Source: Calditrichia bacterium (GTDB taxonomy: Bacteria; Calditrichota; Calditrichia; RBG-13-44-9). From it: 11,904 nucleotides of DNA. Where the stretch lies: positions 1 through 11,904 of the forward strand of contig JARRQT010000240.1 of NCBI GenBank assembly GCA_037381445.1, read 5' to 3'. Below, piece by piece: positions 1 through 11,904 of this stretch. Within the stretch, counting starts at the first letter, position 1. Each line of letters starts with the position of its first letter. Under the pieces are notes generated by a model that worked only from the letters and a program-made list of their open reading frames with translations, had not been told where the DNA came from and ran no database searches. The translations under genes and the position numbers were made by a program.

Positions 1-240
1 TGGCTGCGGCGGGACAGTGAACTGGTATTCATTGCCTTTTCCATCGACTGCACCCATCTGGGCTGCCCGGTACGCTGGCTGCCGGAGGCAAACCTGTTTA
101 TGTGCCCCTGTCACGGCGGGGTTTATTATAAAGATGGCAGCGTGGCGGCTGGTCCGCCGCCGGAATCCCTGCGGCGCTATCCGGTGCGGGTGGTAAACAA
201 TACTGTGGAAATATATACCGGTCCGCTGCCGATCATCTGA
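1..240 (+). CDS. Rieske [2Fe-2S] subunit of a Rieske/cytochrome b complex (3' part; start is upstream of the window)
   Basis: Frame +1 translated by hand: WLRRDSELVFIAFSIDCTHLGCPVRWLPEANLFMCPCHGGVYYKDGSVAAGPPPESLRRYPVRVVNNTVEIYTGPLPII*. It has both Rieske boxes (CTHLGC, CPCHGG) and the GPPP loop, stops at TGA 238-240, and lies directly upstream of cytochrome b. Confidence 0.95.
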   Translation, partial: WLRRDSELVFIAFSIDCTHLGCPVRWLPEANLFMCPCHGGVYYKDGSVAAGPPPESLRRYPVRVVNNTVEIYTGPLPII

Positions 241-366
241 GATGAACCATGGCAGTTATCACTGCTTATGGAATAATTCGGATTGAGAAAACGAAAATAT
301 TAACAGACCGGAAAAGTAACCTGCAATTCAAAAAAATCGGTGATGATCATAAATGAGAAGAGGTAA

Positions 367-1776
367 ATGATGAAATCGTTGATAAAAATCTGGGAGTGGT
401 TTGACGACAGAACAGGAATCGCCAAGGCGCTGAAGACAGTGCTGGTGGAACATAAAGTGCCCAAAGGGTCCACCTGGCTGTATGTCTTCGGCAGCGCAAC
501 ACTGGTGGCGTTTATCATACAAATCATCACAGGCATTGCCCTGGCCACGATTTATGCGCCGTCGCCGGATGGTGCTTATCAGAGCCTTCAGTTTATCACC
601 AACAACAACTGGATAAGCCAATTTGTGCGGGCGCTTCATTATTGGGGTATGTCCGCCATGGTGATGCTGCTGGGCATTCACCTGATCCGTGTGTTTCTTA
701 CCGGCGCCTTCCGGTATCCTCGCGAAATGCATTGGATCAGCGGGGTGGTGCTGCTGGGATTAACGGTGGGCAACGCATTTACAGGGCAGTTGCTGCGCTG
801 GGACCAGAACGCGGTCTGGACGGCGGTGGTAGTGGCGGAGCAGGCGGCAAGGATCCCGTTTATCGGAGGAGCAGTGGCGCATTTCGCTTTGTCCGGTGAT
901 TTTATCGGTGCTGCCACCCTGAGCCACTTTTTCTCTTATCATGTCTTTGTTTTTCCCGGCCTGCTCATCGCTGTCATCGGATTTCATCTTTATCTGGTCC
1001 TGCGTAACGGCATTTCCGAACCCGCCAAGGCCGGCCGTCCGGTGGACCCTAAAAAATACCGGGCCTGGTACCAGGATTTGCTTAAAAGGGAGGGACGTCC
1101 GTTCTGGCCGGACGTTATGTGGCATGATGTGGCTTTTGGATTCTTTGTGATTGTAGCGGTCACTACCCTGGCGGCCGTCTTTGGGCCGCCGGCCCTGAGC
1201 AAACCGCCGAACCCGAGTATTATCGATGCATTGCCGCGTCCCGACTGGTATATGATGTGGTACTTCGCAGTGCTGGCGCTGAGCCCCCATACGGCGGAAC
1301 CCTATATCATGGTGGGCGCACCGCTGCTGGGCACTATTGTCCTGCTGCTGGTACCATTCCTGAAGAAGGGGGGAGGGGGCGAAAGACATCCCCTCAAGAG
1401 ACCCTGGGCGGTTGCCGCCACGTTGATGATTGTGATGTCTCTCGGAACGTTGTGGGTCCAGGGGGTTCACGCGCCCTGGTCGCCGGATTTTACAGCCAAG
1501 CCTTTGCCGGTATCGGTGATCGGGGATTCCACCGGCTTTGTTTTTGAAGGGGCCCAGCTTATGCATAAGAAGGGGTGCCTCTATTGCCACAATATCGCCG
1601 GAGACGGCGGTCACCGCGGACCCGAGCTGACCCATGTGGCAGACCGTCTGACTGAGGACCAGATGACGGTCCGGATCATGAACGGCGGCTACAACATGCC
1701 CGCATTCGCGGGCAGCCTCTCCGCAGAGGATCTGGAGAAAATTCTCGCATTTTTAAAGACAAGGAAATCGCACTGA
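367..1776 (+). CDS. Cytochrome b (b/b6 N-terminal + subunit IV-like domain) fused to a C-terminal monoheme cytochrome c
   Basis: Heme b ligand pairs H-x13-H (LHYWGMSAMVMLLGIHL) and H-x14-H (YHVFVFPGLLIAVIGFHL), YPREMHWISG, Qo-site motif PDWY, and a C-terminal CLYCH with distal Met (NMPAF). RBS GAGG just upstream of the start. Confidence 0.93.
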   Translation: MMKSLIKIWEWFDDRTGIAKALKTVLVEHKVPKGSTWLYVFGSATLVAFIIQIITGIALATIYAPSPDGAYQSLQFITNNNWISQFVRALHYWGMSAMVMLLGIHLIRVFLTGAFRYPREMHWISGVVLLGLTVGNAFTGQLLRWDQNAVWTAVVVAEQAARIPFIGGAVAHFALSGDFIGAATLSHFFSYHVFVFPGLLIAVIGFHLYLVLRNGISEPAKAGRPVDPKKYRAWYQDLLKREGRPFWPDVMWHDVAFGFFVIVAVTTLAAVFGPPALSKPPNPSIIDALPRPDWYMMWYFAVLALSPHTAEPYIMVGAPLLGTIVLLLVPFLKKGGGGERHPLKRPWAVAATLMIVMSLGTLWVQGVHAPWSPDFTAKPLPVSVIGDSTGFVFEGAQLMHKKGCLYCHNIAGDGGHRGPELTHVADRLTEDQMTVRIMNGGYNMPAFAGSLSAEDLEKILAFLKTRKSH

Positions 1777-1854
1777 AAATGAAAAGCGGGGCGCCGTTGG
1801 TTTGGAAAAACAGGAAGATAAAAATGCATGTTAACAGCAATACGGAGGGAGTAC

Positions 1855-2926
1855 ATGAAGAGCAAAAGCGTAAATGAAAAAGAATTATACAATGCCCGCC
1901 TGCATTACTTCGCCATCGTGACCTCTATTGCGGCAACGCTGCTGATTATCGCGGGAGCGCTGGTCACCAGCACCGGTTCTGGAGATTCCGTGCCGGACTG
2001 GCCGCTGGCTTACGGGTCGCTCACTCCCCCCATGGTGGGGGGCATTGTGTTTGAGTACAGCCACCGGCTCATTGCCGGAATGACCGCCACGCTGGTGGGT
2101 ATCCTGGCGATCTGGCTGTGGTTTTCCCGTCCGCGGCGCAAAATCCGCTGGCTGGGACTGGCGGCTTTTCTGGCGGTGCTTGCCCAGGCGGTGCTGGGCG
2201 GGCTGCGGGTGATGGTGGTTTCCAATGAAGCCGTGCGCCAGTTTGTGGGGTTCTTCATCGGCAGCATGAATTTCGATTCCTACCGCCTGTTTTTTGCCAC
2301 GGCGCATGGTATTCTGGGACAAACCGTGCTTTTTCTGCTTTTCTCCATCACGCTTTTTCTGTCGGAATCCTGGATTAAATCGCAGCAGAACGGAAAGGAA
2401 ATTCGCCTGGCGCCAGGTGCGCGGGGGATGAGCCTGCTGCTTTTCGGGGCCGTATTCATCCAGCTCTGTCTGGGCACCCTGATCCGCCACGCGGACGCCT
2501 CGCTGGTGATACCCGATTTCCCGCTCGCCTTCGGCAGGATCATTCCGCCTTTCTATCTCCCCGGCTATGGCCGGCGATTTTGCTTTCCGGGTGGCGCTGC
2601 AGTTCTCCCACCGGGTGATGGCGCTGATCATACTGGGACTGGCGGTTTATTTCTTTATTACCTACCGGAAGACTTTCCGGATCGGCAATATTGTCAAAAT
2701 ATTGTTTGGCCTGGTGCTGATTCAGGTGACCCTGGGGGCCTCCAATATCTGGGCGAAAATCCCGGTCTATACCACAGTCCCCCATGTAGCGGTTGGCGCT
2801 TTGATCCTGGCCAGCAGCGTGGTTCTGACCCTGTGGGTGTGGCGCTTTCGGCGGGAAGCGGTAGCGATCCGGTACCCTGCAAAAAAGACGCCTGTTAAAG
2901 AGGCAGAACCGGTGGCGGCCGGTTGA
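1855..2926 (+). pseudogene. ctaA: COX15/CtaA family heme A synthase-like protein, split by a frameshift near 2545-2560 (pseudogene or sequencing error)
   Basis: N-half: GALVTSTGSGDSVPDWP, FEYSHRL, ATAHG, and the internal repeat IPDFPLAFG. C-half in another frame (ORF 2567..2926): QFSHRVMA, VLIQVTLG, VPHVAVGALIL. Removing one base near 2554 joins them (IIPPF-ISPAMAGDF). RBS GGAGGG at 1844-1849 supports ATG 1855. Confidence 0.8.
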
Positions 2927-2959
2927 TGGACGATAGTAAGGGCATGCAAAAGAATAAGA

Positions 2960-3217
2960 TAACGTGAGTTCGATGTAATAAAAATGTCAATTGAATTATG
3001 TTAGAAACTATTCCCAAATGTCATTCCCAGTCTACCCCTGTGGGGCATGCTTTTAGCGGGAATCCACTGTAAAAGGACTGCAATTTGTTCTTCCCTGATT
3101 CACTGGATTCCCCTGGATGGACCACTCTGTGGCGGCAATCCCCCGCAACAAGCGCGGGGCAGGCTCTGCCGGAATGACAATTTTGTTCGGAAAAGTTCTT
3201 AACTCGAACTCACATTA
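2960..3217. mobile_element. MITE-like non-autonomous element with 14-bp terminal inverted repeats
   Basis: TAACGTGAGTTCGA (2960-2973) and TCGAACTCACATTA (3204-3217) match as an inverted repeat at 13/14. No ORF inside; intergenic. Confidence 0.65.
3019..3179. repeat. Nested palindromic repeat of the GTCATTCC...GGGAATCCA / TGGATTCCC...GGAATGAC type
   Basis: Outer IR TGTCATTCC (3019-3027)/GGAATGACA (3171-3179); inner IR GGGAATCCA (3058-3066)/TGGATTCCC (3104-3112); small hairpin CCCCGC (3141-3146)/GCGGGG (3154-3159). Confidence 0.7.
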
Positions 3218-3273
3218 ATTAACGGAGAATTCCCCGGCGCCAAAATATAATCGTGAGGAGAACTATTTCAGAT

Positions 3274-3693
3274 ATGCTGATTTCCATAAAGCATCTGCCG
3301 GCTGTGAACGCGGTTTTGAATGGAACCAGCTTCATTCTTCTGCTGCTGGCCTTTTATTTCATCAAACGGAGAATGATCAAAACCCACCGCGGAGTCATGC
3401 TGGCGGCATTCGGCACTTCAATTCTTTTTCTGGTCTCCTATCTTACCTATCACTACCAGGTGGGGACGGTCCATTTCATGAAGCAGGGGTGGATCAGGCC
3501 GGTCTATTTCTCCATTCTGGCCACCCATACCGTGCTGGCGGCGTCCATCGTGCCGCTGGCCATCATTACCCTGAGCCGCGGTCTGCGGGCCAATTTCGGC
3601 AGGCATGTAAGGATTGCCCGCTGGACGCTGCCCATCTGGCTTTATGTTTCGGTGACCGGGGTGGTTATCTATTTTCTGCTGTATCAGCTTTAA
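3274..3693 (+). CDS. DUF420 family membrane protein (oxidase-cluster associated)
   Basis: LPAVNAVLN, HRGVMLAAF, FLVSYLTYH, YFSILATH, HVRIARWTLPIWLYVSVTGVVIY are characteristic of DUF420. Alternative GTG start at 3253. Confidence 0.88.
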   Translation: MLISIKHLPAVNAVLNGTSFILLLLAFYFIKRRMIKTHRGVMLAAFGTSILFLVSYLTYHYQVGTVHFMKQGWIRPVYFSILATHTVLAASIVPLAIITLSRGLRANFGRHVRIARWTLPIWLYVSVTGVVIYFLLYQL

Positions 3694-3776
3694 CGGGAAC
3701 GGCGATTTGAATTTCTTTATGCCCGGTTTCCGCAGACGGAAACCGCTGCAGCAGTCTTTGAATAGGGAGCGAGCGT

Positions 3777-4292
3777 ATGAATACAGGTTTTGGGGCCTTT
3801 TCAGGTAATTTGGACAAGATGCTGATTCTGCCCGCAGCGGCGGTCTGCGCGGTTCTGCTGTTCCTGACGACGATTCTGATGCTCTGGTTTGCCCTGCGGC
3901 GGAATGTATCCCACCGTCCGAAACTGAAAAACATCACGATAAATACTGGCGCTGAGATAGTGCTCATTATCATTCCCGGCCTGCTGGTGCTGGGTATGTT
4001 CTATTACGGCTGGAAAGGCTATCCACCGCATAGCGGTTTCGCCCAAAATACCAATCCGAAGACCGCCGCGGTTTCCGGGACACTCGGTTTGGATTCTTCG
4101 AATATAACGGCCAATGATTCCCTGCCGTTTTTTGCGGACATTCATAAAAGAATATCGCCCGGAGTCTTCCTGAAAAGAGATGTTTCCTTCCCTTCCGGTT
4201 CAATAATTACGGGACCGGAAATTTATTTCCTCCGCCATTATTCGAATTACAGGGGCTTCCCGAATTTTCAGATATACTGTCTACCCGAATAG
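3777..4292 (+). CDS. Cytochrome c oxidase subunit II transmembrane-domain-like protein lacking the CuA domain (possibly a truncated or degenerate coxB)
   Basis: Two TM helices with NITINTGAEIVLIIIPGLLVLGMFYYGWKGY, resembling the N-x-x-L-E-x-x-W-x-x-I-P region of COX2_TM. No CuA motif (C-x-E-x-C-G-x-x-H-x-x-M) in the C-terminal tail. RBS GGGAG upstream. Confidence 0.55.
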   Translation: MNTGFGAFSGNLDKMLILPAAAVCAVLLFLTTILMLWFALRRNVSHRPKLKNITINTGAEIVLIIIPGLLVLGMFYYGWKGYPPHSGFAQNTNPKTAAVSGTLGLDSSNITANDSLPFFADIHKRISPGVFLKRDVSFPSGSIITGPEIYFLRHYSNYRGFPNFQIYCLPE

Positions 4293-4416
4293 AAGGGCGC
4301 GGGCCATTCCCGAACAGAAAACAGGGCAGCAGCGCCTTCGTTTAAAGCACTCCACATAATTCCCGGCAGCTCTTCCATAAATATTATTTTCATTCCCGTG
4401 AAATAACGAACACTTC

Positions 4417-4445
4417 TTGATTAAGAGAGTAATATTTTTTAAAAT
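4417..4445 (+). promoter_or_regulatory. Putative sigma70-type promoter of purL
   Basis: TTGATT (4417-4422), 17 bp spacer, TAAAAT (4440-4445); RBS GGAGA at 4466-4470 before ATG 4477. Confidence 0.45.
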
Positions 4446-4476
4446 TACAGGCTTGTGAGAATCATGGAGATGAAAG

Positions 4477-6702
4477 ATGAATGAACCGAAAGTAACCCTT
4501 GAACTGGCTCGGCAGCACGGACTGACTGACGAAGAGTATGCGCGGATCAAAGAGATTTTGGGAAGAATCCCTACCTATACCGAACTGGGAATATTTTCAG
4601 TGATGTGGAGCGAGCACTGCTCCTATAAAAATTCCATCGCCGAATTGAAGAAACTTCCCCGCAGCGGCGGACGCCTGCTGGTGGGAGCGGGGGAGGAGAA
4701 TGCCGGTCTGGTGGACATTGGCGACGGACTGGCTGTCTGTTTCAAGATAGAGAGTCATAATCATCCTTCCGCGGTGGAGCCCTACCAGGGGGCCGCCACC
4801 GGTGTGGGCGGAATTATGCGTGACATTTTTACCATGGGCGCCCGTCCCATTGCCGGGCTTGATTCTTTGCGTTTCGGCAAACTGGACAAGGCCCGTAACC
4901 GCTACCTGGTTGACGGCGTGGTGCGGGGCATCGCCGATTACGGCAACTGCCTGGGCGTTCCCACCGTGGCCGGTGAAATTTATTTCGAAGACTGCTACAG
5001 CGGAAATCCGCTGGTGAATGCCATGACCGTTGGGATCGTGGACCACGACAAGACTGCTTCGGCGGTGGCCCGGGGAGAGGGCAATCCGGTGTTTATCATC
5101 GGTTCCCGCACCGGTAGGGACGGAATTCATGGCGCCACCTTCGCTTCGGAAGAACTGACCGAGAAATCCGAGGAGCGCCGTCCCAATGTGCAGGTGGGGG
5201 ACCCCTTTACCGAAAAACTGCTGCTGGAAGCCAGCCTGGAGATGATCCGGGAGAAGATTCTGATCGGCATTCAGGATATGGGGGCGGCCGGCATTACCTG
5301 CAGCACCACCGAGATGAGCGCCAAAGGCGAAAGCGGAATGGTGATAGACCTGGACAAAGTGCCCATCCGCGAGGAGGGCATGTCCGCCTACGAGATCATG
5401 CTGTCCGAATCCCAGGAACGCAGGCTGGCGGTAGTCAAGACAGGCCCTGAACAGCGCATGAAGGAAATCTGCGATAAATGGGAACTGATTTGCGAAGAGG
5501 TGGGGTACGTGACGGACGAACCGCTGCTCACCGTGCACCATAAAGGGGAAGTGGTGGCGCAGGTGCCGCCTTACTATTGCGTGCTGGGCGGCGGCGCGCC
5601 GGTTTATCACCGGGATTATCAGCGTCCCCGCTACCTGGACGAGATCCGGCATCTTGACATGGAACATTTGAAACCGGCGGACAATCTGCAGGACGCCTTC
5701 CTGCGGGTATTCTCCTCCTCGAACATAGTTTCAAAACACTGGGTTTACGAGCAGTACGACCACATGGTGCGCACCAACACTTCCGTCTATCCCGGCGGAG
5801 ACGCCGCGGTCATCCGCATCAAAAAGACCAATAAAGCCATTGCCATGAAGACCGACGGGAACGGCCGTTACGTCTACCTGGATCCCCGGCGCGGGGCGCA
5901 GATAGCGGTGGCGGAGGCCGCCCGCAATGTGGCGTGCAGCGGGGGCGAGCCGCTGGCGGTGACCAACTGCCTGAATTTCGGCAATCCCTACAAGCCGGAC
6001 ATGTTCTACCAGTTCCGGGAAGCGGTGGCCGGGATGGGAGAAGCATGCACTGTTTTCAATACCCCGGTGACGGGCGGGAACGTGAGCTTCTACAACGAGA
6101 GCCCGGACAGCGCGGTTTATCCCACGCCGGTGATCGGCATGGTGGGCCTGGTGGAAAACCTGCAGGAAATTACCCCGGCTTATTTCCGGGAAGAGGGCGA
6201 TCTCATTTACCTGGTCGGCGAGACCCGCGCGGAAATCGGGGGCAGCGAATTTTTGAAGGAATACTACGGCATGGTGAAAGGGGAATGTCCGGCCATCGAT
6301 CTGCAGCATGAGCGGAAGGTGCAGCAGGCGCTGCTGGCCGCCATCCGGGCAGGCCGGGTGCGTTCCGCCCACGATGTTTCCGACGGCGGATTGATTATCG
6401 CCCTGGCGGAAAGCTGCATCGTGAACCGGGACAACCCGCTGGGTGCAGAAATACAGCTGGATACCGCCGGGATGCGGCCGGAATGGTTCCTGTTCAGCGA
6501 GACCCAGTCGCGCATCGTGATCTCCGTGAAACCGGAACACGGTGCCGATATTGAAAAACATTTCCGGGCGCAGGACATTCCCGTCTGGCATATCGGTAAC
6601 GTGAAGGGACAGAACCTGCGGGTGAATGATGTGATCGATGTCCCTCTGACCCGCCTGACGGACATTTTTTATAACCGCCTGGGCGAGCTGATGGAAGGGT
6701 AG
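4477..6702 (+). CDS. purL: Phosphoribosylformylglycinamidine synthase subunit PurL (small type)
   Basis: [86 protein letters not shown]; 741 aa full length. Confidence 0.98.
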
Positions 6703-6821
6703 TTTTCTTCGGCGGTCATCCTGACAGAGATGCCGGAAAATTGGGATGTAGACAAATAAGGGTGCAGCACGCTCACTCGTCTGCAATATGCTAATTGCTT
6801 GTGCGATGAATATTTTTATTG

Positions 6822-6914
6822 CTCCATCACTCCAATACTCCAATTCTGCAATACTCCAATACTGCAATACTGCAATACTCCAATACTGCACTACGGCAAT
6901 ACTCCAATACTCCA
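6822..6914. repeat. 8-bp tandem repeat array, consensus CT(C/G)CAATA, 11 full units plus one partial
   Basis: Units read directly: CTCCATCA CTCCAATA CTCCAATT CTGCAATA CTCCAATA CTGCAATA CTGCAATA CTCCAATA CTGCACTA CGGCAATA CTCCAATA CTCCA. Confidence 0.92.
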
Positions 6915-7091
6915 CCCCGCGCCGGTCCCTGTGCTGTGCAATGCGGAACCGCAACCGGCTGACGTGCCTCGCTCCGAATTTTTATCACATTTGCTCTTGC
7001 ATATTATCGCCCCATCAGATAACTTACCAGTGTATTATCCCGATATTGATTTAACAGCGCCGCAAAAGATTTCTTGTTTTATCATAAATTG

Positions 7092-7125
7092 AAAAAATGG
7101 CGGCCGCGATGGCTGTCTGTTTTTT
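7092..7125. terminator. Possible bidirectional rho-independent terminator
   Basis: A6 tract, stem GGCGGCC (7099-7105), 5-nt loop, GGCTGTC (7111-7117, two G-U pairs), then TGTTTTTT. Confidence 0.35.
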
Positions 7126-7262
7126 AATCCATTTGCTGAAATCCCCGGCGGGCTGTCAGGGAATGGTTCGAATGGCCGCCGCAAACTGAAACCGCCCGCC
7201 GGCCATGGTGAGCAGATTTTGGCGATGGATGCATTGAACACAAATTCCGGGAGAATTAACAG

Positions 7263-8014
7263 ATGAACGCTTTGCCGGATATAAATGCCATCCCGGTTTA
7301 TGAGGATGTGCAGCAGGAGCTTATTTCACTGCTGAAGTCCTTGTCGCCTGAGGAATGGAATTACCCGACGTCCAGCACAAAATGGAGGGTGAAGGATATT
7401 GTGGCCCACTGCTGGTTTTTCTGAATGATCTGAATAATACCTGGGTCAGGGCGGCGGAACGTCTGAGTCCTGCCTTGCTCATCGAGCTGACGGCGTTTGC
7501 CGCGCCGAAGGTCGTCAGGCATTTCCGGGGCCTGGACCCGAAAGGAATCGCCCTGTTTGGCGTTGCCTGGGCCGGTGAGGAGGAATCGGAGAACTGGTTC
7601 GACATTGCCCGCGAATACAGTGAAAAATGGCATCACCAGCAGCAGATCAGGGAAGCGGCGGGCAGGCCGCTCCTGGTCGGCCGGAAATGGCTGTCCCCGC
7701 TGATCGCCACCCTTATCCGGGGCGTGCCGCCCGTTTACAACAGGCATGCGGGCGGCAGCGGCAGCCGGAAAATTGAAATCCGCGTTTCAGGCGCCATTGA
7801 AGACAGTTGGCTGCTGGCCGGGGAGAACGGCCGCTGGCGGCTTTTTGCGGCGGGCGACGTAAAACCGGATACCGTCATTGAAATGGATGATGACACCGCC
7901 TGGCGCCTGTTCACCAGGAATATTTCCGAAGAGGCTTCACTGGAACGTCTCCGGATAAGCGGGGACAGGGCGCTGGGGGGCCTCATCGCGAAGACCTGTT
8001 CTTATCTGAAGTAA
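7263..8014 (+). pseudogene. Maleylpyruvate isomerase / MDMPI (DinB-superfamily) family protein, disrupted by an apparent internal deletion with frameshift near 7410
   Basis: ATG 7263 (RBS GGGAG) gives MNALPDINAIPVYEDVQQELISLLKSLSPEEWNYPTSSTKWRVKDIVAH then CWFF* (TGA 7422-7424). The other frame continues LVFLNDLNNTWVRAAERLSP...VAWAGEEESENWFDIAREYSEKWHHQQQIREA...DDDTAWRLFT. W-x-V-K-D-x-x-A-H and E-x-W-H-H-x-Q-Q-I are family motifs. Confidence 0.75.
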
Positions 8015-8391
8015 AGCCGGGATGCCGGAAGCGAAACAGCGGCCGGCGCCAACAGCGGGAATGCGGAAGCCATTGCGTTGGATTGGAGCTGAATGCATCT
8101 GCAAAAAGCTATCAAAGAATGGTGATCATGTAATGAAGAGTTATGAGCGGGGGATTTTATTTAAGAAGCTGGAATTGCATCGAGGAATTTGCTGACTAAC
8201 CGCAGTAGACTTATATACCGCAATTCGCTTTCCGCGCGGTTTTTCATTTTTTTATTTGCTTTTTATAGGCTTGGAAAATAATTTGGAAATGCATTACATG
8301 AAAATTTATCATATACCAGGATAAAAAATTTCTTTTTGTTGTAATTGGAATTGAAAATATAGGGCAGTAAAAAATTATCTATGGTTGTAGG

Positions 8392-8400
8392 TGCTATAAT
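8392..8400 (+). promoter_or_regulatory. Perfect extended -10 element (TGnTATAAT) upstream of the ATPase/helicase operon
   Basis: TGCTATAAT at 8392-8400, ~250 bp before ATG 8653; RBS AAGGAG at 8638-8643. The AT-rich background lowers specificity. Confidence 0.4.
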
Positions 8401-8652
8401 TTCCATAGAAAAAATTGTTGGCATTATCTACTTCCAATACTTCCGGTTATGGATTTTATGCAATTTACTGCCGCCTGCAATTTCATTGCAATAGGAAAGT
8501 CTGCTAGAAACGTGATTATTGTTGGTTCTATGGTTTGCATCATATTAGCAAAATATAATCTCTACCTATTCTTATTATTTTGATAGGCTTGAGCTTTTAT
8601 TAAAATCAATCGAATTCTAAAACATTGTTTAAACTTCAAGGAGCTTTGTGCG

Positions 8653-11562
8653 ATGAAATTGATTGAAATACTGGAAAAATATTCTGATTCTGCAATTGAT
8701 CAATTAGCATCAGATAAGGTTGATGAATCAGCTAATTTGAGATTACCTAGGACAATTATTGTGCAGGAAATCCAGGCAGCACTAAGCTCATTGTCTTACG
8801 TTGCCAGGGCATTGGCTCCTTCTCGCCCGCCTACTTATGAATTTATTAAACTTCTTTTGGATGCTCCAAACCATATGCTTCCGGTTGAAGGGTTTCAGGA
8901 ATTGGTTTTATCAACAACCAAAGAGATGACGCAAAGAGCTGATACCGGAAGTGGACTCTCAAATGGCAAGAACTACCAATTATACATAAATGTTCTAAAA
9001 AATGCTTGGGAGAGTGATAACGAAATTGATCGTAGTGAAGCACAGCTATTGGAGGCTTTGAGAAGCGAATTGGGTATTTGGACAAGAGAACATCTGCTTC
9101 TTGAACACCACCCTCAGGTAAGAAAGTTATGGGACAGCCCGGACGCATACATTTCCGCCCGAAACTATTTATTGCTGACCGGCCTCATCCTGACTTTTGA
9201 AAACAATTATGCTATAGCTGATGAAGTTGCAGTACAGATACGCCGATCTTGGGGCATGGATTTGGAAAGATCTTCATATGCACGGCTCCTAAACCTGCTC
9301 AAAAATGATCAATTACATACAGTCTTAGATCAAACATATCTGCAATTAAGTGGAACCAAAGAAGAAAGAATACAGAGAATTATTGATGCTCTAATACCAC
9401 CGGTTGAAGTTCTCAATTATTTTCAAGCTGAGGAACTTCGCGACTTTTGCAGAAACATCGGGATACAGGTTTCGGGCAAAAAGTCTGAATTGATCTCTAA
9501 TATCATAGACCATTTTGATAGGGGAGATGACCTGAATATCGAAGCCAAAGAAGAAAAAACTTCACCTTTGCCTGAAGTGGCAGAGCAGAGAATTCTAAGT
9601 CAAGATATCTTCGAAAAGTTACTGCAAAACCTGACCAATGATCAATTATATGATATTTTGTCGCAAAGTTATTTAAAAACAAGCGGAATAAAAGAAGAAA
9701 AAATCAAGCGCTTGATCGAAAGCCCTTGGTCAGACAACTCGATAATCAATCGTCTCAGGAAAAACGACTTATCGGATTTATGCAGAAAATTAGGAATACA
9801 GGTATCCGGCATAAAAAGCGAGTTGGTTGATAGGCTGATAGAAGGTGCCCGGATACGGTATAGTGCATCAACAACGGCTGCAGTTATTCAGGACCAAGAA
9901 TCCAATTCTGATTCTAAAGGTGCAACCTCTTTTGAGGATGTATTGGCTAGTGATGAATTTCTTGAAACAAAAAAAGCTTCTTTGCCAAAAGCACTTAAAG
10001 AGATAAAGAGAGATTATCCCGATTTAGAAGAAGATGAACAATTAATCTTGTCCCTTATTAAAGAGACACGCTCATTAACTGAGCACGATATTGAACGTGT
10101 TAGTCGTACTCATGGTTTGGGCTGGTTTCTGACCAAAGCACATATGTCTGAATTGGCTGCAAAGTTGCGAAATACACAAAAAAATCCTCTTCAAGTCAGA
10201 AGCGTCAGAAGTGTTAATATTTATGAATGGGCAGGAGAAAGAATAGAAAATAGAAACTTTCTCGAGAAGCAGGCTGCTCGCGATGTAATCGATGCGCTAA
10301 GACAAGGTGTTGTCCCTGATAAAAATATTGATATGATAATTATTGGCAATAACAAAGCTCGTACGCATTTGAAGGACCTTTTAAATGAGGCAAAGAATAA
10401 TAAATCACCTTTCAAATTTATACGAGGGCCATATGGGTCTGGTAAAACATTCTTAAGTTCATGGCTGAGGGAATATGCGCTTAAGGAGGAGTATGTTGTG
10501 TCAACCGTTAATATTGGTCCGGATCAGCCTTTGTCGGATCTGCCAATTTTCTATAGTGGTGTCATAAATGGCCTTCGGATTCCTGAAAAGACCGATTCCT
10601 GCGCCCTGACAGACGTTTTGGAATCATGGCTCTTAACTATTCATAAAAAAACGGCGCAGATTGAAGGTCTATCTTCATTAGAATCCAAATCTCAAAAGAA
10701 GCTTCAGGAAATAGTTGAGAAAAGAGTAGAATCGGAGTTAGCATATTTAGGTAACTTGGATACAGGATTTGCACCGGCATTAAGAGCATTTTACCGTGCA
10801 AAAAGTAATAATAACCCGGTATTGGCATCGACAGCTATTGCATGGCTCAGTGGAAGCCGTTCAATGTCGAGCAAAATGTTGAACGAAATCGGAGTTAGAG
10901 GATACTTAGAACCAAATGAAGTATTTCCAAGAATCAGGGCTCTAATGAGATTAATAAAGGGCTCACGCTATAATGGTTTATTGCTCCTTGTAGATGAACT
11001 TGAACTTATAAGAAAATTCCCGCATGCGAGACAACGGGAACAGGCTCTTGAGATATTGCGTCTTCTAATTGATGAATCAGGCAAGAATGGATTTCCCGGC
11101 TGCCTTCTCATTTTTACAGGGACGGACATGTTTTTTGAGGATGATAGAGCCGGACTAAAAAGTTATGAAGCGCTGGCCGACCGAATTTCAATTCCAAATA
11201 GCCCTGATGGATTGATTAGCATAAGGCAACCCGTTATTTCGCAACCCGTTATTTCCTTGCAGGGTTTTAATTCATCCAAGCTTCTTGCAGTCATTGGGAG
11301 AGTGCGGGATATTCATGGAATTGCCTACAATTGGGATGCTGTCTCAAGGTTTCCTGATGAAGCTCTTCAAAAGCTGGTTCAGGATTGGACAGCATTTGGT
11401 GAGAAATCAGTCAGCAGAAAACCGAGGCCAATTATCAGAGAGTTTATTCATATTTTAGATTTATGTGAAGAAAATCCGACTATTTCTCATGAGGAACTCA
11501 TTCATATAGATTCGACAGAAAAAGATACTGTCTCTCAAATAACAGAGATTCTTAACCAGTAA
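8653..11562 (+). CDS. BrxD/DUF2791-type P-loop ATPase with a long N-terminal extension (TerB-like motif, four SAP-like motifs, possible wHTH); putative anti-phage defence protein
   Basis: The C-terminal ~430 aa start at ARDVIDALRQGVVP and contain Walker A FIRGPYGSGKT (GPYGSGKT at 10426-10449), Walker B LLLLVDELE, IFTGT and YEALADRI, all typical of DUF2791/BrxD. N-terminal repeats match the SAP pattern L-x(3)-L/C-x(3)-G/Y-L/I-x-x-S-G-x-K-x-E-L-I-x-R-L. Confidence 0.85.
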   Translation: MKLIEILEKYSDSAIDQLASDKVDESANLRLPRTIIVQEIQAALSSLSYVARALAPSRPPTYEFIKLLLDAPNHMLPVEGFQELVLSTTKEMTQRADTGSGLSNGKNYQLYINVLKNAWESDNEIDRSEAQLLEALRSELGIWTREHLLLEHHPQVRKLWDSPDAYISARNYLLLTGLILTFENNYAIADEVAVQIRRSWGMDLERSSYARLLNLLKNDQLHTVLDQTYLQLSGTKEERIQRIIDALIPPVEVLNYFQAEELRDFCRNIGIQVSGKKSELISNIIDHFDRGDDLNIEAKEEKTSPLPEVAEQRILSQDIFEKLLQNLTNDQLYDILSQSYLKTSGIKEEKIKRLIESPWSDNSIINRLRKNDLSDLCRKLGIQVSGIKSELVDRLIEGARIRYSASTTAAVIQDQESNSDSKGATSFEDVLASDEFLETKKASLPKALKEIKRDYPDLEEDEQLILSLIKETRSLTEHDIERVSRTHGLGWFLTKAHMSELAAKLRNTQKNPLQVRSVRSVNIYEWAGERIENRNFLEKQAARDVIDALRQGVVPDKNIDMIIIGNNKARTHLKDLLNEAKNNKSPFKFIRGPYGSGKTFLSSWLREYALKEEYVVSTVNIGPDQPLSDLPIFYSGVINGLRIPEKTDSCALTDVLESWLLTIHKKTAQIEGLSSLESKSQKKLQEIVEKRVESELAYLGNLDTGFAPALRAFYRAKSNNNPVLASTAIAWLSGSRSMSSKMLNEIGVRGYLEPNEVFPRIRALMRLIKGSRYNGLLLLVDELELIRKFPHARQREQALEILRLLIDESGKNGFPGCLLIFTGTDMFFEDDRAGLKSYEALADRISIPNSPDGLISIRQPVISQPVISLQGFNSSKLLAVIGRVRDIHGIAYNWDAVSRFPDEALQKLVQDWTAFGEKSVSRKPRPIIREFIHILDLCEENPTISHEELIHIDSTEKDTVSQITEILNQ
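9286..9843 (+). repeat. Four SAP-like protein motifs arranged as a duplicated A-B pair within the ATPase gene
   Basis: A1 LLNLLKNDQLHTVLDQTYLQLSGTKEERIQRIID; B1 VLNYFQAEELRDFCRNIGIQVSGKKSELISNIID; A2 LLQNLTNDQLYDILSQSYLKTSGIKEEKIKRLIE; B2 IINRLRKNDLSDLCRKLGIQVSGIKSELVDRLIE. Confidence 0.75.
11226..11255 (+). repeat. Perfect 15-bp tandem duplication, in frame (QPVIS x2)
   Basis: GCAACCCGTTATTTC at 11226-11240 and 11241-11255. Confidence 0.95.
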
Positions 11563-11573
11563 TGGGTCAGTGA

Positions 11574-11904
11574 TTGAAAAATCAAACTATAATTGAGCTA
11601 CTTAATCCGGGACTCCAAAAGCTTATTCAGGAAAAAGGTTGGCATTCGGGTCTAAAGCCTATTCAAATTGCAGCAATACCCTCCATTCTGGATGGTTACG
11701 ACTGCATCATAGAAGCGCCAACTGCCGGCGGGAAAACTGAAGCGGTTCTATTACCGGCCTTAACACGAGCTGCTCAAGAAAAGCATAATTGCGTTCAGGT
11801 TTTATATTTGGCTCCTCTCCGGGCATTGCTTAACGACATCGAATTAAGAGCAACAGAATATTCAGCCGTTTGCGGTCTCAATTGTTTCAAATGGCATGGT
11901 GATG
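11574..11904 (+). CDS. Lhr-like DEAD/DEAH-box SF2 helicase (BrxHI/SngC-like), N-terminal part, truncated by the window end
   Basis: Hand translation from TTG 11574: MKNQTIIELLNPGLQKLIQEKGWHSGLKPIQIAAIPSILDGYDCIIEAPTAGGKTEAVLLPALTRAAQEKHNCVQVLYLAPLRALLNDIELRATEYSAVCGLNCFKWHGD. It shows the Q motif, motif I APTAGGKTEA, motif Ia LYLAPLRALLND and WHGD; open to the end of the window. Confidence 0.9.
   Translation, partial: MKNQTIIELLNPGLQKLIQEKGWHSGLKPIQIAAIPSILDGYDCIIEAPTAGGKTEAVLLPALTRAAQEKHNCVQVLYLAPLRALLNDIELRATEYSAVCGLNCFKWHGD

Follow-up and report, generated by a model that had tools for sequence, protein, structure and literature searches.

A conserved, patchily spread two-gene unit closes the window, by which we mean the whole analysed stretch of 11,904 nt from a Calditrichia bacterium (assembly GCA_037381445.1, contig JARRQT010000240.1), and this unit is probably an unnamed anti-phage system. 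Its first gene fuses an N-terminal arm with four SAP units to an AAA+ ATPase of the BrxD/SngB family (PF10923), and its second encodes a helicase of the BrxHI/Lhr type. On balance we favour a stand-alone cassette of these two genes that would defend against phages or other mobile DNA by means of SAP arm, ATPase and helicase. The first-pass annotation of this DNA had described a protein of 969 amino acids (aa) with an N-terminal extension before a BrxD/DUF2791-type ATPase, followed after an 11-bp gap by an Lhr-like helicase, and the open reading frames (ORFs) together with Pfam confirm this description:

8653..11562, + strand: fused arm and BrxD/SngB-family AAA+ ATPase, 969 aa (ORF, Pfam, PADLOC, homologues)
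11574..11904, + strand: 5' end (110 aa) of a BrxHI/Lhr-type superfamily 2 (SF2) helicase, cut by the contig end (ORF, profiles)

Conservation of the gene pair

A search with the fused protein gave 173 matches, of which the best 120 were listed (119 without the query itself). Among the matches listed, 118 of these 119 align over 92% or more of the query with identities of 49-81%, all with SAP and PF10923, and the architecture is thus conserved in homologues, as had been expected. Their sources include Ignavibacteria, Chitinophaga, Mangrovibacterium, Desulfobacteraceae, Acidobacteriota and Myxococcota, to which the locus titles add Calditrichaceae, KSB1 and Melioribacteraceae. We compared 64 loci, several of them near-duplicates. 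The helicase gene follows directly in 50 of the 51 loci with readable downstream DNA, mostly at gaps of -11 to +36 bp, and 13 of the 64 loci end too early. The sole informative locus without a helicase (L014:177-2957) has an ATPase ending at the equivalent of aa 927 with an unrelated kinase gene next to it, which suggests a deletion or insertion. In four further loci (L024, L027, L044, L045) the fused gene is split into two frames at differing places, reflecting either frameshift errors or decay. No third gene recurs in the 64 loci beyond near-duplicate loci or generic families.

The fused gene is rare and single-copy, occurring in 3 of 86 genomes of its own phylum. In a second phylum it was present in 1 of 401 genomes; each of the 12 remaining PF10923 genes there lies behind an SngA-like ORF (one confirmed by PADLOC). 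A third phylum gave three strong matches among 167 genomes. The arm was not found in searches of plasmids or phages, nor the SAP-ATPase fusion in the viral contigs searched. In 21 of 26 loci, near-duplicates among them, the cassette has a lower content of guanine plus cytosine (GC) than its flanking ORFs.

The helicase ORF of the window starts with TTG at 11574, and the fragment matches Pfam DEAD and the PADLOC models BrxHI (114.5 bits) and SngC (88.6 bits). The window is the entire contig (C240) and the remainder of the helicase was not found elsewhere in the assembly; therefore the downstream context is known from relatives only. Their complete helicases have 713-756 aa and carry DEAD, Helicase_C and WH_Lhr, the last at or over its cut-off by at least 0.6 bits in five of six and over 27 bits in all six. 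They keep the SF2 motifs and score 526-541 bits with BrxHI versus 408-441 bits with SngC.

Domain architecture of the fused protein

The fused protein scores 65.8 bits with Pfam SAP (cut-off 23.9) and 61.9 bits with SAP_new25, also exceeding the cut-off. An AlphaFold2 (AF2) model of the arm (aa 1-536, 136 sequences; mean pLDDT 91.8, pTM 0.76) gives the order N-terminal helices, winged-helix-like domain with helical insert, two SAP pairs, linker (variable, conservation 0.31) and second winged helix. Four SAP units with a helix-loop-helix fold are seen in the model (aa 206-245, 250-289, 317-356 and 361-402) and are homologous to one another, all six pairwise profile comparisons giving 97.9-99.4% probability. 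The extension had been described as built from SAP-like repeats. The repeats themselves stand, as four units, while SAPs alone do not account for the arm, to which the model adds two winged helices and a hairpin resembling half of a TerB domain. From the known function of the SAP family, the units may be taken as DNA-binding. The parts of the fused protein are as follows:

8791..9261, + strand: first winged-helix-like domain (aa 47-203) with helical insert (AF2 model)
8974..9108, + strand: possible TerB-half-like acidic helical hairpin (aa 108-152), a weak assignment (hhalign, sub-threshold Pfam)
9268..9519, + strand: SAP pair 1 (aa 206-289; Pfam, AF2 model, profile comparison)
9601..9858, + strand: SAP pair 2 (aa 317-402; Pfam, AF2 model, profile comparison)
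9985..10242, + strand: second winged helix (aa 445-530), three-stranded (AF2 model with the order H-E-H-H-E-E, structural matches, complex prediction)
10264..11505, + strand: PF10923 ATPase domain (aa 538-951; Pfam BrxC_BrxD, E 1.4e-94, 317.8 bits)
10426-10449, + strand: Walker A (G595/G597/K598)
10579..10644, + strand: helical ATPase segment (aa 643-664) that, by prediction, makes up most of the surface on which the second winged helix docks (complex prediction)
10981-10998, + strand: Walker B (D781/E782)

The first winged helix gave middling structural matches to the winged helices of TubR, CodY and Orc1/Cdc6 (Z 6.3-6.7). In its hairpin the residues Y111, E129 and E146 are invariant. Compared by hhalign with the TerB domain of SngA, the hairpin reaches only 25% probability (E 8e-4) and lines up with TerB in its C-terminal half; Pfam TerB matches in the hairpins of relatives are sub-threshold only, and weak ENT-like matches occur as well. 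The second winged helix matches winged helices at Z 6.3-7.7 and a TM-score of about 0.6. Searching the 536-aa arm against PDB with Foldseek gave no match at E <= 0.001. TFIIH p52, the top match in VIA (Z 8.8, root-mean-square deviation 4.8, 102 aligned), was rejected as a relative of the arm, being unconvincing for a helical protein.

The Walker A residues G595, G597 and K598 and the Walker B residues D781 and E782 are invariant in all 120 aligned sequences. R844 and R925 are invariant too, presumably as arginine finger and sensor-2. The ATPase has no sequence relative in PDB. An exact 15-bp tandem duplication at 11226-11255 (+ strand) adds five residues to the ATPase of the window; it is present neither in the other 39 alignment rows nor in the contigs of runs X2 and X3 (one sample, a close strain), and is either strain-specific or an assembly slip.

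Modelled as separate chains, second winged helix and ATPase gave a predicted complex score of 0.75, the best of three controls reaching 0.00; 116 of 157 solved complexes and 2 of 215 mismatched pairs reach this mark. Between runs, at least 96% of contacts coincide, and partner pLDDT is 86 or more. The second winged helix is thereby predicted to dock on the ATPase, with aa 492-503 and 513-522 against the helix of aa 643-664. A helix alignable to this one is present in SngB and BrxD.

Arm modules in other proteins

It had been proposed that a separate first gene with a sensing or targeting role became fused onto the ATPase. This proposal gains from stand-alone arms of ~520 aa that end in the second winged helix (P0129-P0134, P0137); sister stand-alone ATPases exist as well (P0308, P0316, P0317), and neither kind was found in the phyla searched. 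Shorter arms of about 400-440 aa do not contain the last winged helix (P0144-P0182), and the Atlas cluster closest to them, of 56 members and 418 aa, is most frequent in Myxococcota. Arms of this kind also stand alone or are fused to DUF6508 or zinc ribbons (P0143, P0146, P0162).

In proteins of ~500 aa, part of the arm (hairpin, winged helix and two SAPs) is joined to a FokI-like PD-(D/E)XK nuclease domain, which is over the cut-off in P0227 and below it in P0235, P0236, P0240 and P0218. These fusions point to a DNA-targeting module. Two of the arm-nuclease genes (L107:6458-8005 and L108:2008-3555) are solo in their context, and the proteins are candidate single-gene defence nucleases. The full four-SAP arm occurs with a nuclease-like domain in P0159 (708 aa) and P0152. 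P0159 ends in a winged helix of the ATPase-docking type (aa 624-700, E 8e-14), so that some versions may carry their own nuclease. Matches of the second-winged-helix profile on P0152, P0158, P0187 and P0159 aa 411-487 were discarded as circular, these rows being already in the profile slice. The TerB-half-like hairpin recurs as tandem repeats in TPR and response-regulator proteins (L077, L086-L089, L091, L092).

Defence role and alternative explanations

Each of the two motor genes has family members in Shango and in BREX type 2, and by this analogy a defence role and helicase loading may be attributed to the cassette. We propose that the arm, with winged helix and four SAPs, would grip DNA, and that the last winged helix, docked on the ATPase, would couple DNA binding to ATPase activity. 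The Lhr-type helicase would in turn be activated or loaded by the ATPase, loading being what has been proposed for BrxD-BrxHI (PMC12839542, covered in part, like the other publications used here), and would unwind or dismantle the DNA of the invader. Because the cassette has no methylase or nuclease, discrimination between self and non-self would rest on DNA structure such as ends, forks or unprotected replicating DNA, and not on modification.

Around the cassettes we collected 144 neighbouring ORFs (up to three per side, nine near-duplicate loci omitted) and scanned 136 of them from 44 loci. Defence-type proteins make up 16 of the 136, in 11 of the 44 loci, compared with 5 of 112 in 20 control regions of fixed position, two of which contain such a protein. 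The types are Cas9/Cas1, Gabija (PADLOC-confirmed), type II restriction-modification (R-M), AbiE, Mrr, HEPN, PIN and toxin-antitoxin; one cassette lies directly upstream of cas9-cas1 (L003:7216-13124) and another directly downstream of Gabija (L011:1-3541). The enrichment is modest: the earlier expectation of a defence-island association holds by protein (one-sided Fisher p 0.03) and is weak by locus (11/44 versus 2/20, p 0.15), with defence classes chosen after the matches had been seen, clustered neighbours, and control regions from other genomes.

Several further observations weigh against a defence role or its proposed mechanism. In 33 of the 44 loci there is no recognisable defence neighbour and the cassette sits among ordinary genes, and in 5 of the 26 loci its GC is not below that of the flanks. 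No effector such as a nuclease or toxin is evident in the cassette. The predicted interface joins two parts of one natural chain and was modelled with an alignment of our own making, and its ATPase side is barely above the average conservation of the domain (0.76 versus 0.72). Furthermore, Lhr-family helicases also act in DNA repair.

We regard as unlikely the alternative of a mobile module for DNA repair or replication stress, in which the SAP arm would locate host DNA that is damaged or branched, and the helicase would be loaded by the ATPase for repair. Most loci do lie among housekeeping genes, the solved structures closest to the helicase are those of ATP-dependent DNA helicases, and the literature covered ties SAP domains to eukaryotic genome maintenance. 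Against repair speak the very patchy spread, the low GC, the absence of conserved flanks, the closest families being BrxD/BrxHI and SngB/SngC, and another, distant Lhr-like helicase that the same genome already encodes (29% identity, contig C134).

Improbable in our judgement is a defence triggered by a phage protein or by an ion or membrane signal via the hairpin or the first winged helix, the SAPs serving only as a tether to DNA. It would fit the conservation of the region of aa 47-203, which holds the hairpin with its invariant acidic residues and averages 0.70 versus 0.61-0.65 for the SAPs, and the membrane surveillance that has been proposed for TerB domains, as for Shango, in the parts of that literature covered. 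However, the likeness to TerB is weak and spans half a domain without TerB-N. The hairpin also turns up in nuclease fusions as well as unrelated response regulators, and it is therefore not a dedicated defence sensor.

The least probable explanation is an accessory motor serving another system in trans (BREX, R-M, CRISPR or a solo arm-nuclease) and inert alone: the cassette does come without effector, sometimes adjoins Cas9, R-M or Gabija, and has a parallel in BrxD-BrxHI as accessory to the type-2 BREX core (PMC12839542, in the part covered), but its neighbours vary between loci, and its own genome (92% complete) gave no tblastn match to BREX-2 PglZ or to two SngA queries. The only PglZ-family matches of five carrier genomes, one in each, lie in frames of 521-536 aa and were rejected as BREX PglZ, the one frame read (that of G000) being a PorX-like response regulator; the only PglZ domain of the window's own genome is PorX-like. 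We retain the stand-alone defence cassette as the preferred explanation.

The locus in the window

The annotation had placed the genes in an AT-rich block with no upstream defence gene, and both statements hold: GC is 40.1% in the cassette versus 54.7% in positions 1-8014 and 47.7% genome-wide, and none of the six upstream ORFs scanned belongs to a defence family. These ORFs gave cytochrome b, COX15, DUF420 and PurL-type domains, a weak SCP2/TIGR03083 match in one and no match under E 0.05 in another; three longer ORFs left out of the scan (at 760, 4597 and 5731) are antisense overlaps. Between the host genes and the cassette, positions 8015-8652 have 36.2% GC:

8050..8652, no strand: AT-rich leader of the low-GC block, with a probable left edge near 8049 (GC and contig comparison)

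The host-side contig of runs X2 and X3 departs from the window sequence after 8049. This divergence in the close strain coincides with the GC step and suggests that 8049 is the left edge of an inserted block. One X1 contig begins at 8049, and the cassette contig of X2 differs from the window before 8183. Promoter-like sites in the leader are not above shuffles (4 versus 2.7).

The COX15-like gene is apparently frameshifted, with ORFs 1828-2898 and 2567-2926 overlapping (window 1828-2926). The frame at 3777-4292 gives us the impression of a truncated one, presumably like cytochrome oxidase subunit II. At 6829-6914, 3' of the PurL-type gene, lies an intergenic 8-bp tandem repeat of ~11 copies.

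Comparison with Shango, BREX type 2 and Lhr helicases

In the ATPase tree (FastTree, 59 sequences in a subset of our choosing, with 12 of 17 SngB included and 11 short or redundant match groups and most fused homologues omitted), a single clade (0.93) unites 16 fused ATPases with two partial relatives, and three stand-alone ATPases branch next to it as successive sisters (0.98). The fused clade lies apart from SngB (1.0) and from four actinobacterial or proteobacterial type-2 BrxD (1.0); a fifth type-2 BrxD, cyanobacterial, branches beside these four. In the helicase tree (30 sequences, likewise a chosen subset) the cassette helicases, all 13 of them, form one group (1.0) that is separate from SngC and sister to BrxHI at 0.91, midpoint rooting being a guide only. 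PADLOC scores the fused ATPase at 249.5 bits with BrxD versus 184.1 bits with SngB. By score and branching, ATPase and helicase of the cassette are a third lineage, nearer to BrxD/BrxHI than to Shango. The kinship with Shango and BREX drawn in the annotation is therefore retained at the level of families, and membership of either is not. A separate, well-supported clade of 412-414-aa PF10923 ATPases (P0327, P0329, P0334, P0342) is neither SngB nor BrxD. On a Deinococcus psychrotolerans plasmid (L069:4987-12401) a PF10923 ATPase and a helicase follow an LRV-repeat protein and a 451-aa unknown protein; this locus has a partial second copy and a long branch in both trees, and may represent a further exchange of sensor on this motor.

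Shango, a three-gene protective system without BREX core in the literature covered, shares with the cassette the tightly spaced order of upstream module, PF10923 ATPase and Lhr-type helicase, realised in the cassette as fusion plus helicase. Neither has a BREX core, and the hairpin of the cassette weakly resembles half of TerB. The cassette differs in having two genes and an arm with four SAPs. The arm matches none of SngA, TerB_N, TerB or TerB_C (a true SngA scores 249 bits in PADLOC). Since the ATPases lie in a clade separate from SngB, and the helicases in one separate from SngC, the cassette is not Shango. The arm matches no named system among the PADLOC models, and we found no description of a SAP-fused BrxD/DUF2791 protein in literature searches outside subscription journals; the suggestion that the system may be undescribed thus holds up.

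In BREX type 2, as in the cassette, a BrxD-family ATPase is directly followed by a BrxHI-family helicase, and these families give the best profile matches. In the part of PMC12839542 covered, BrxD is an ORC/Cdc6-type AAA+ ATPase linked to BrxHI, possibly as its loader, and stands alone without DNA-binding domains; the cassette ATPase, in contrast, bears a 535-aa arm. It reaches 244.6 bits where the NCBIfam cut-off for BrxD is 350. None of pglW, pglX, pglY (brxC) and pglZ was seen among the 136 neighbour proteins of the 44 loci. Because of this, and because no third gene recurs, the cassette is not BREX. The earlier view of a compact ATPase-helicase module without BREX core is borne out among the relatives, the window's own downstream DNA being missing. 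Further sources for comparison, likewise covered in part, are 10.1101/2022.11.11.516204, 10.1101/2022.05.11.491447, 10.1101/2025.09.30.679545 and 10.1101/2025.09.15.676423.

A winged helix stands just upstream of a PF10923-type ATPase in all three systems. The model of Shango TerB-C, which ends the upstream module there, repeats the H-E-H-H-E-E order of the cassette's second winged helix and has structural matches among winged helices (Z 5.4-7.5). The gene preceding brxD in BREX type 2 is that of PglZ, whose C-terminus is a three-stranded winged helix-turn-helix (PMC12839542, section 18). This suggests a docking module common to the three. Since sequence homology among the winged helices did not emerge, we put such a docking rule forward as a hypothesis: hhalign gave 8% (E 0.004) with TerB-C, not above SAP controls (up to 42%; 17 template sequences), and 0.07% with the PglZ C-terminus (only 5 template sequences). 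We tentatively speculate, and consider it rather doubtful, that the cassette is an unnamed two-gene anti-phage system exposing a rule common to the three, with a motor that blocks phage replication without methylase or nuclease. The PF10923 ATPase-helicase motor might then be armed by the winged helix ending an exchangeable upstream sensor. Conceivably, these sensors would be TerB-C in Shango, the PglZ C-terminus in BREX type 2 and the SAP arm here, where fusion would freeze the contact in one chain. Equally speculative is a motor that takes its guidance from SAP arrays like those of eukaryotes, which would read the structure of DNA. The predicted docking site names residues (aa 492-503 against 643-664) and leads directly to a prediction for two other pairs, TerB-C/SngB of Shango and PglZ/BrxD. 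Tandem SAP domains are mostly eukaryotic (over 92%) according to the covered part of PMC13700489, and if our proposal is true, they join bacterial defence. The literature covered contains no tested mechanism for Shango or for the BrxD-BrxHI dyad of BREX type 2, and the natural two-gene version is the smallest unit for asking what the ATPase-helicase motor does.

Compared with the Lhr family, the cassette helicases share DEAD, Helicase_C and WH_Lhr. Their best relatives in PDB are the ATP-dependent DNA helicases 5v9x (877 aa) and 7lhl (1508 aa), which we take to be mycobacterial Lhr proteins, and also 6znp. They differ from this family in their size of ~740 aa, in being always coupled to an ATPase gene, and in far higher scores with the BrxHI and SngC models.

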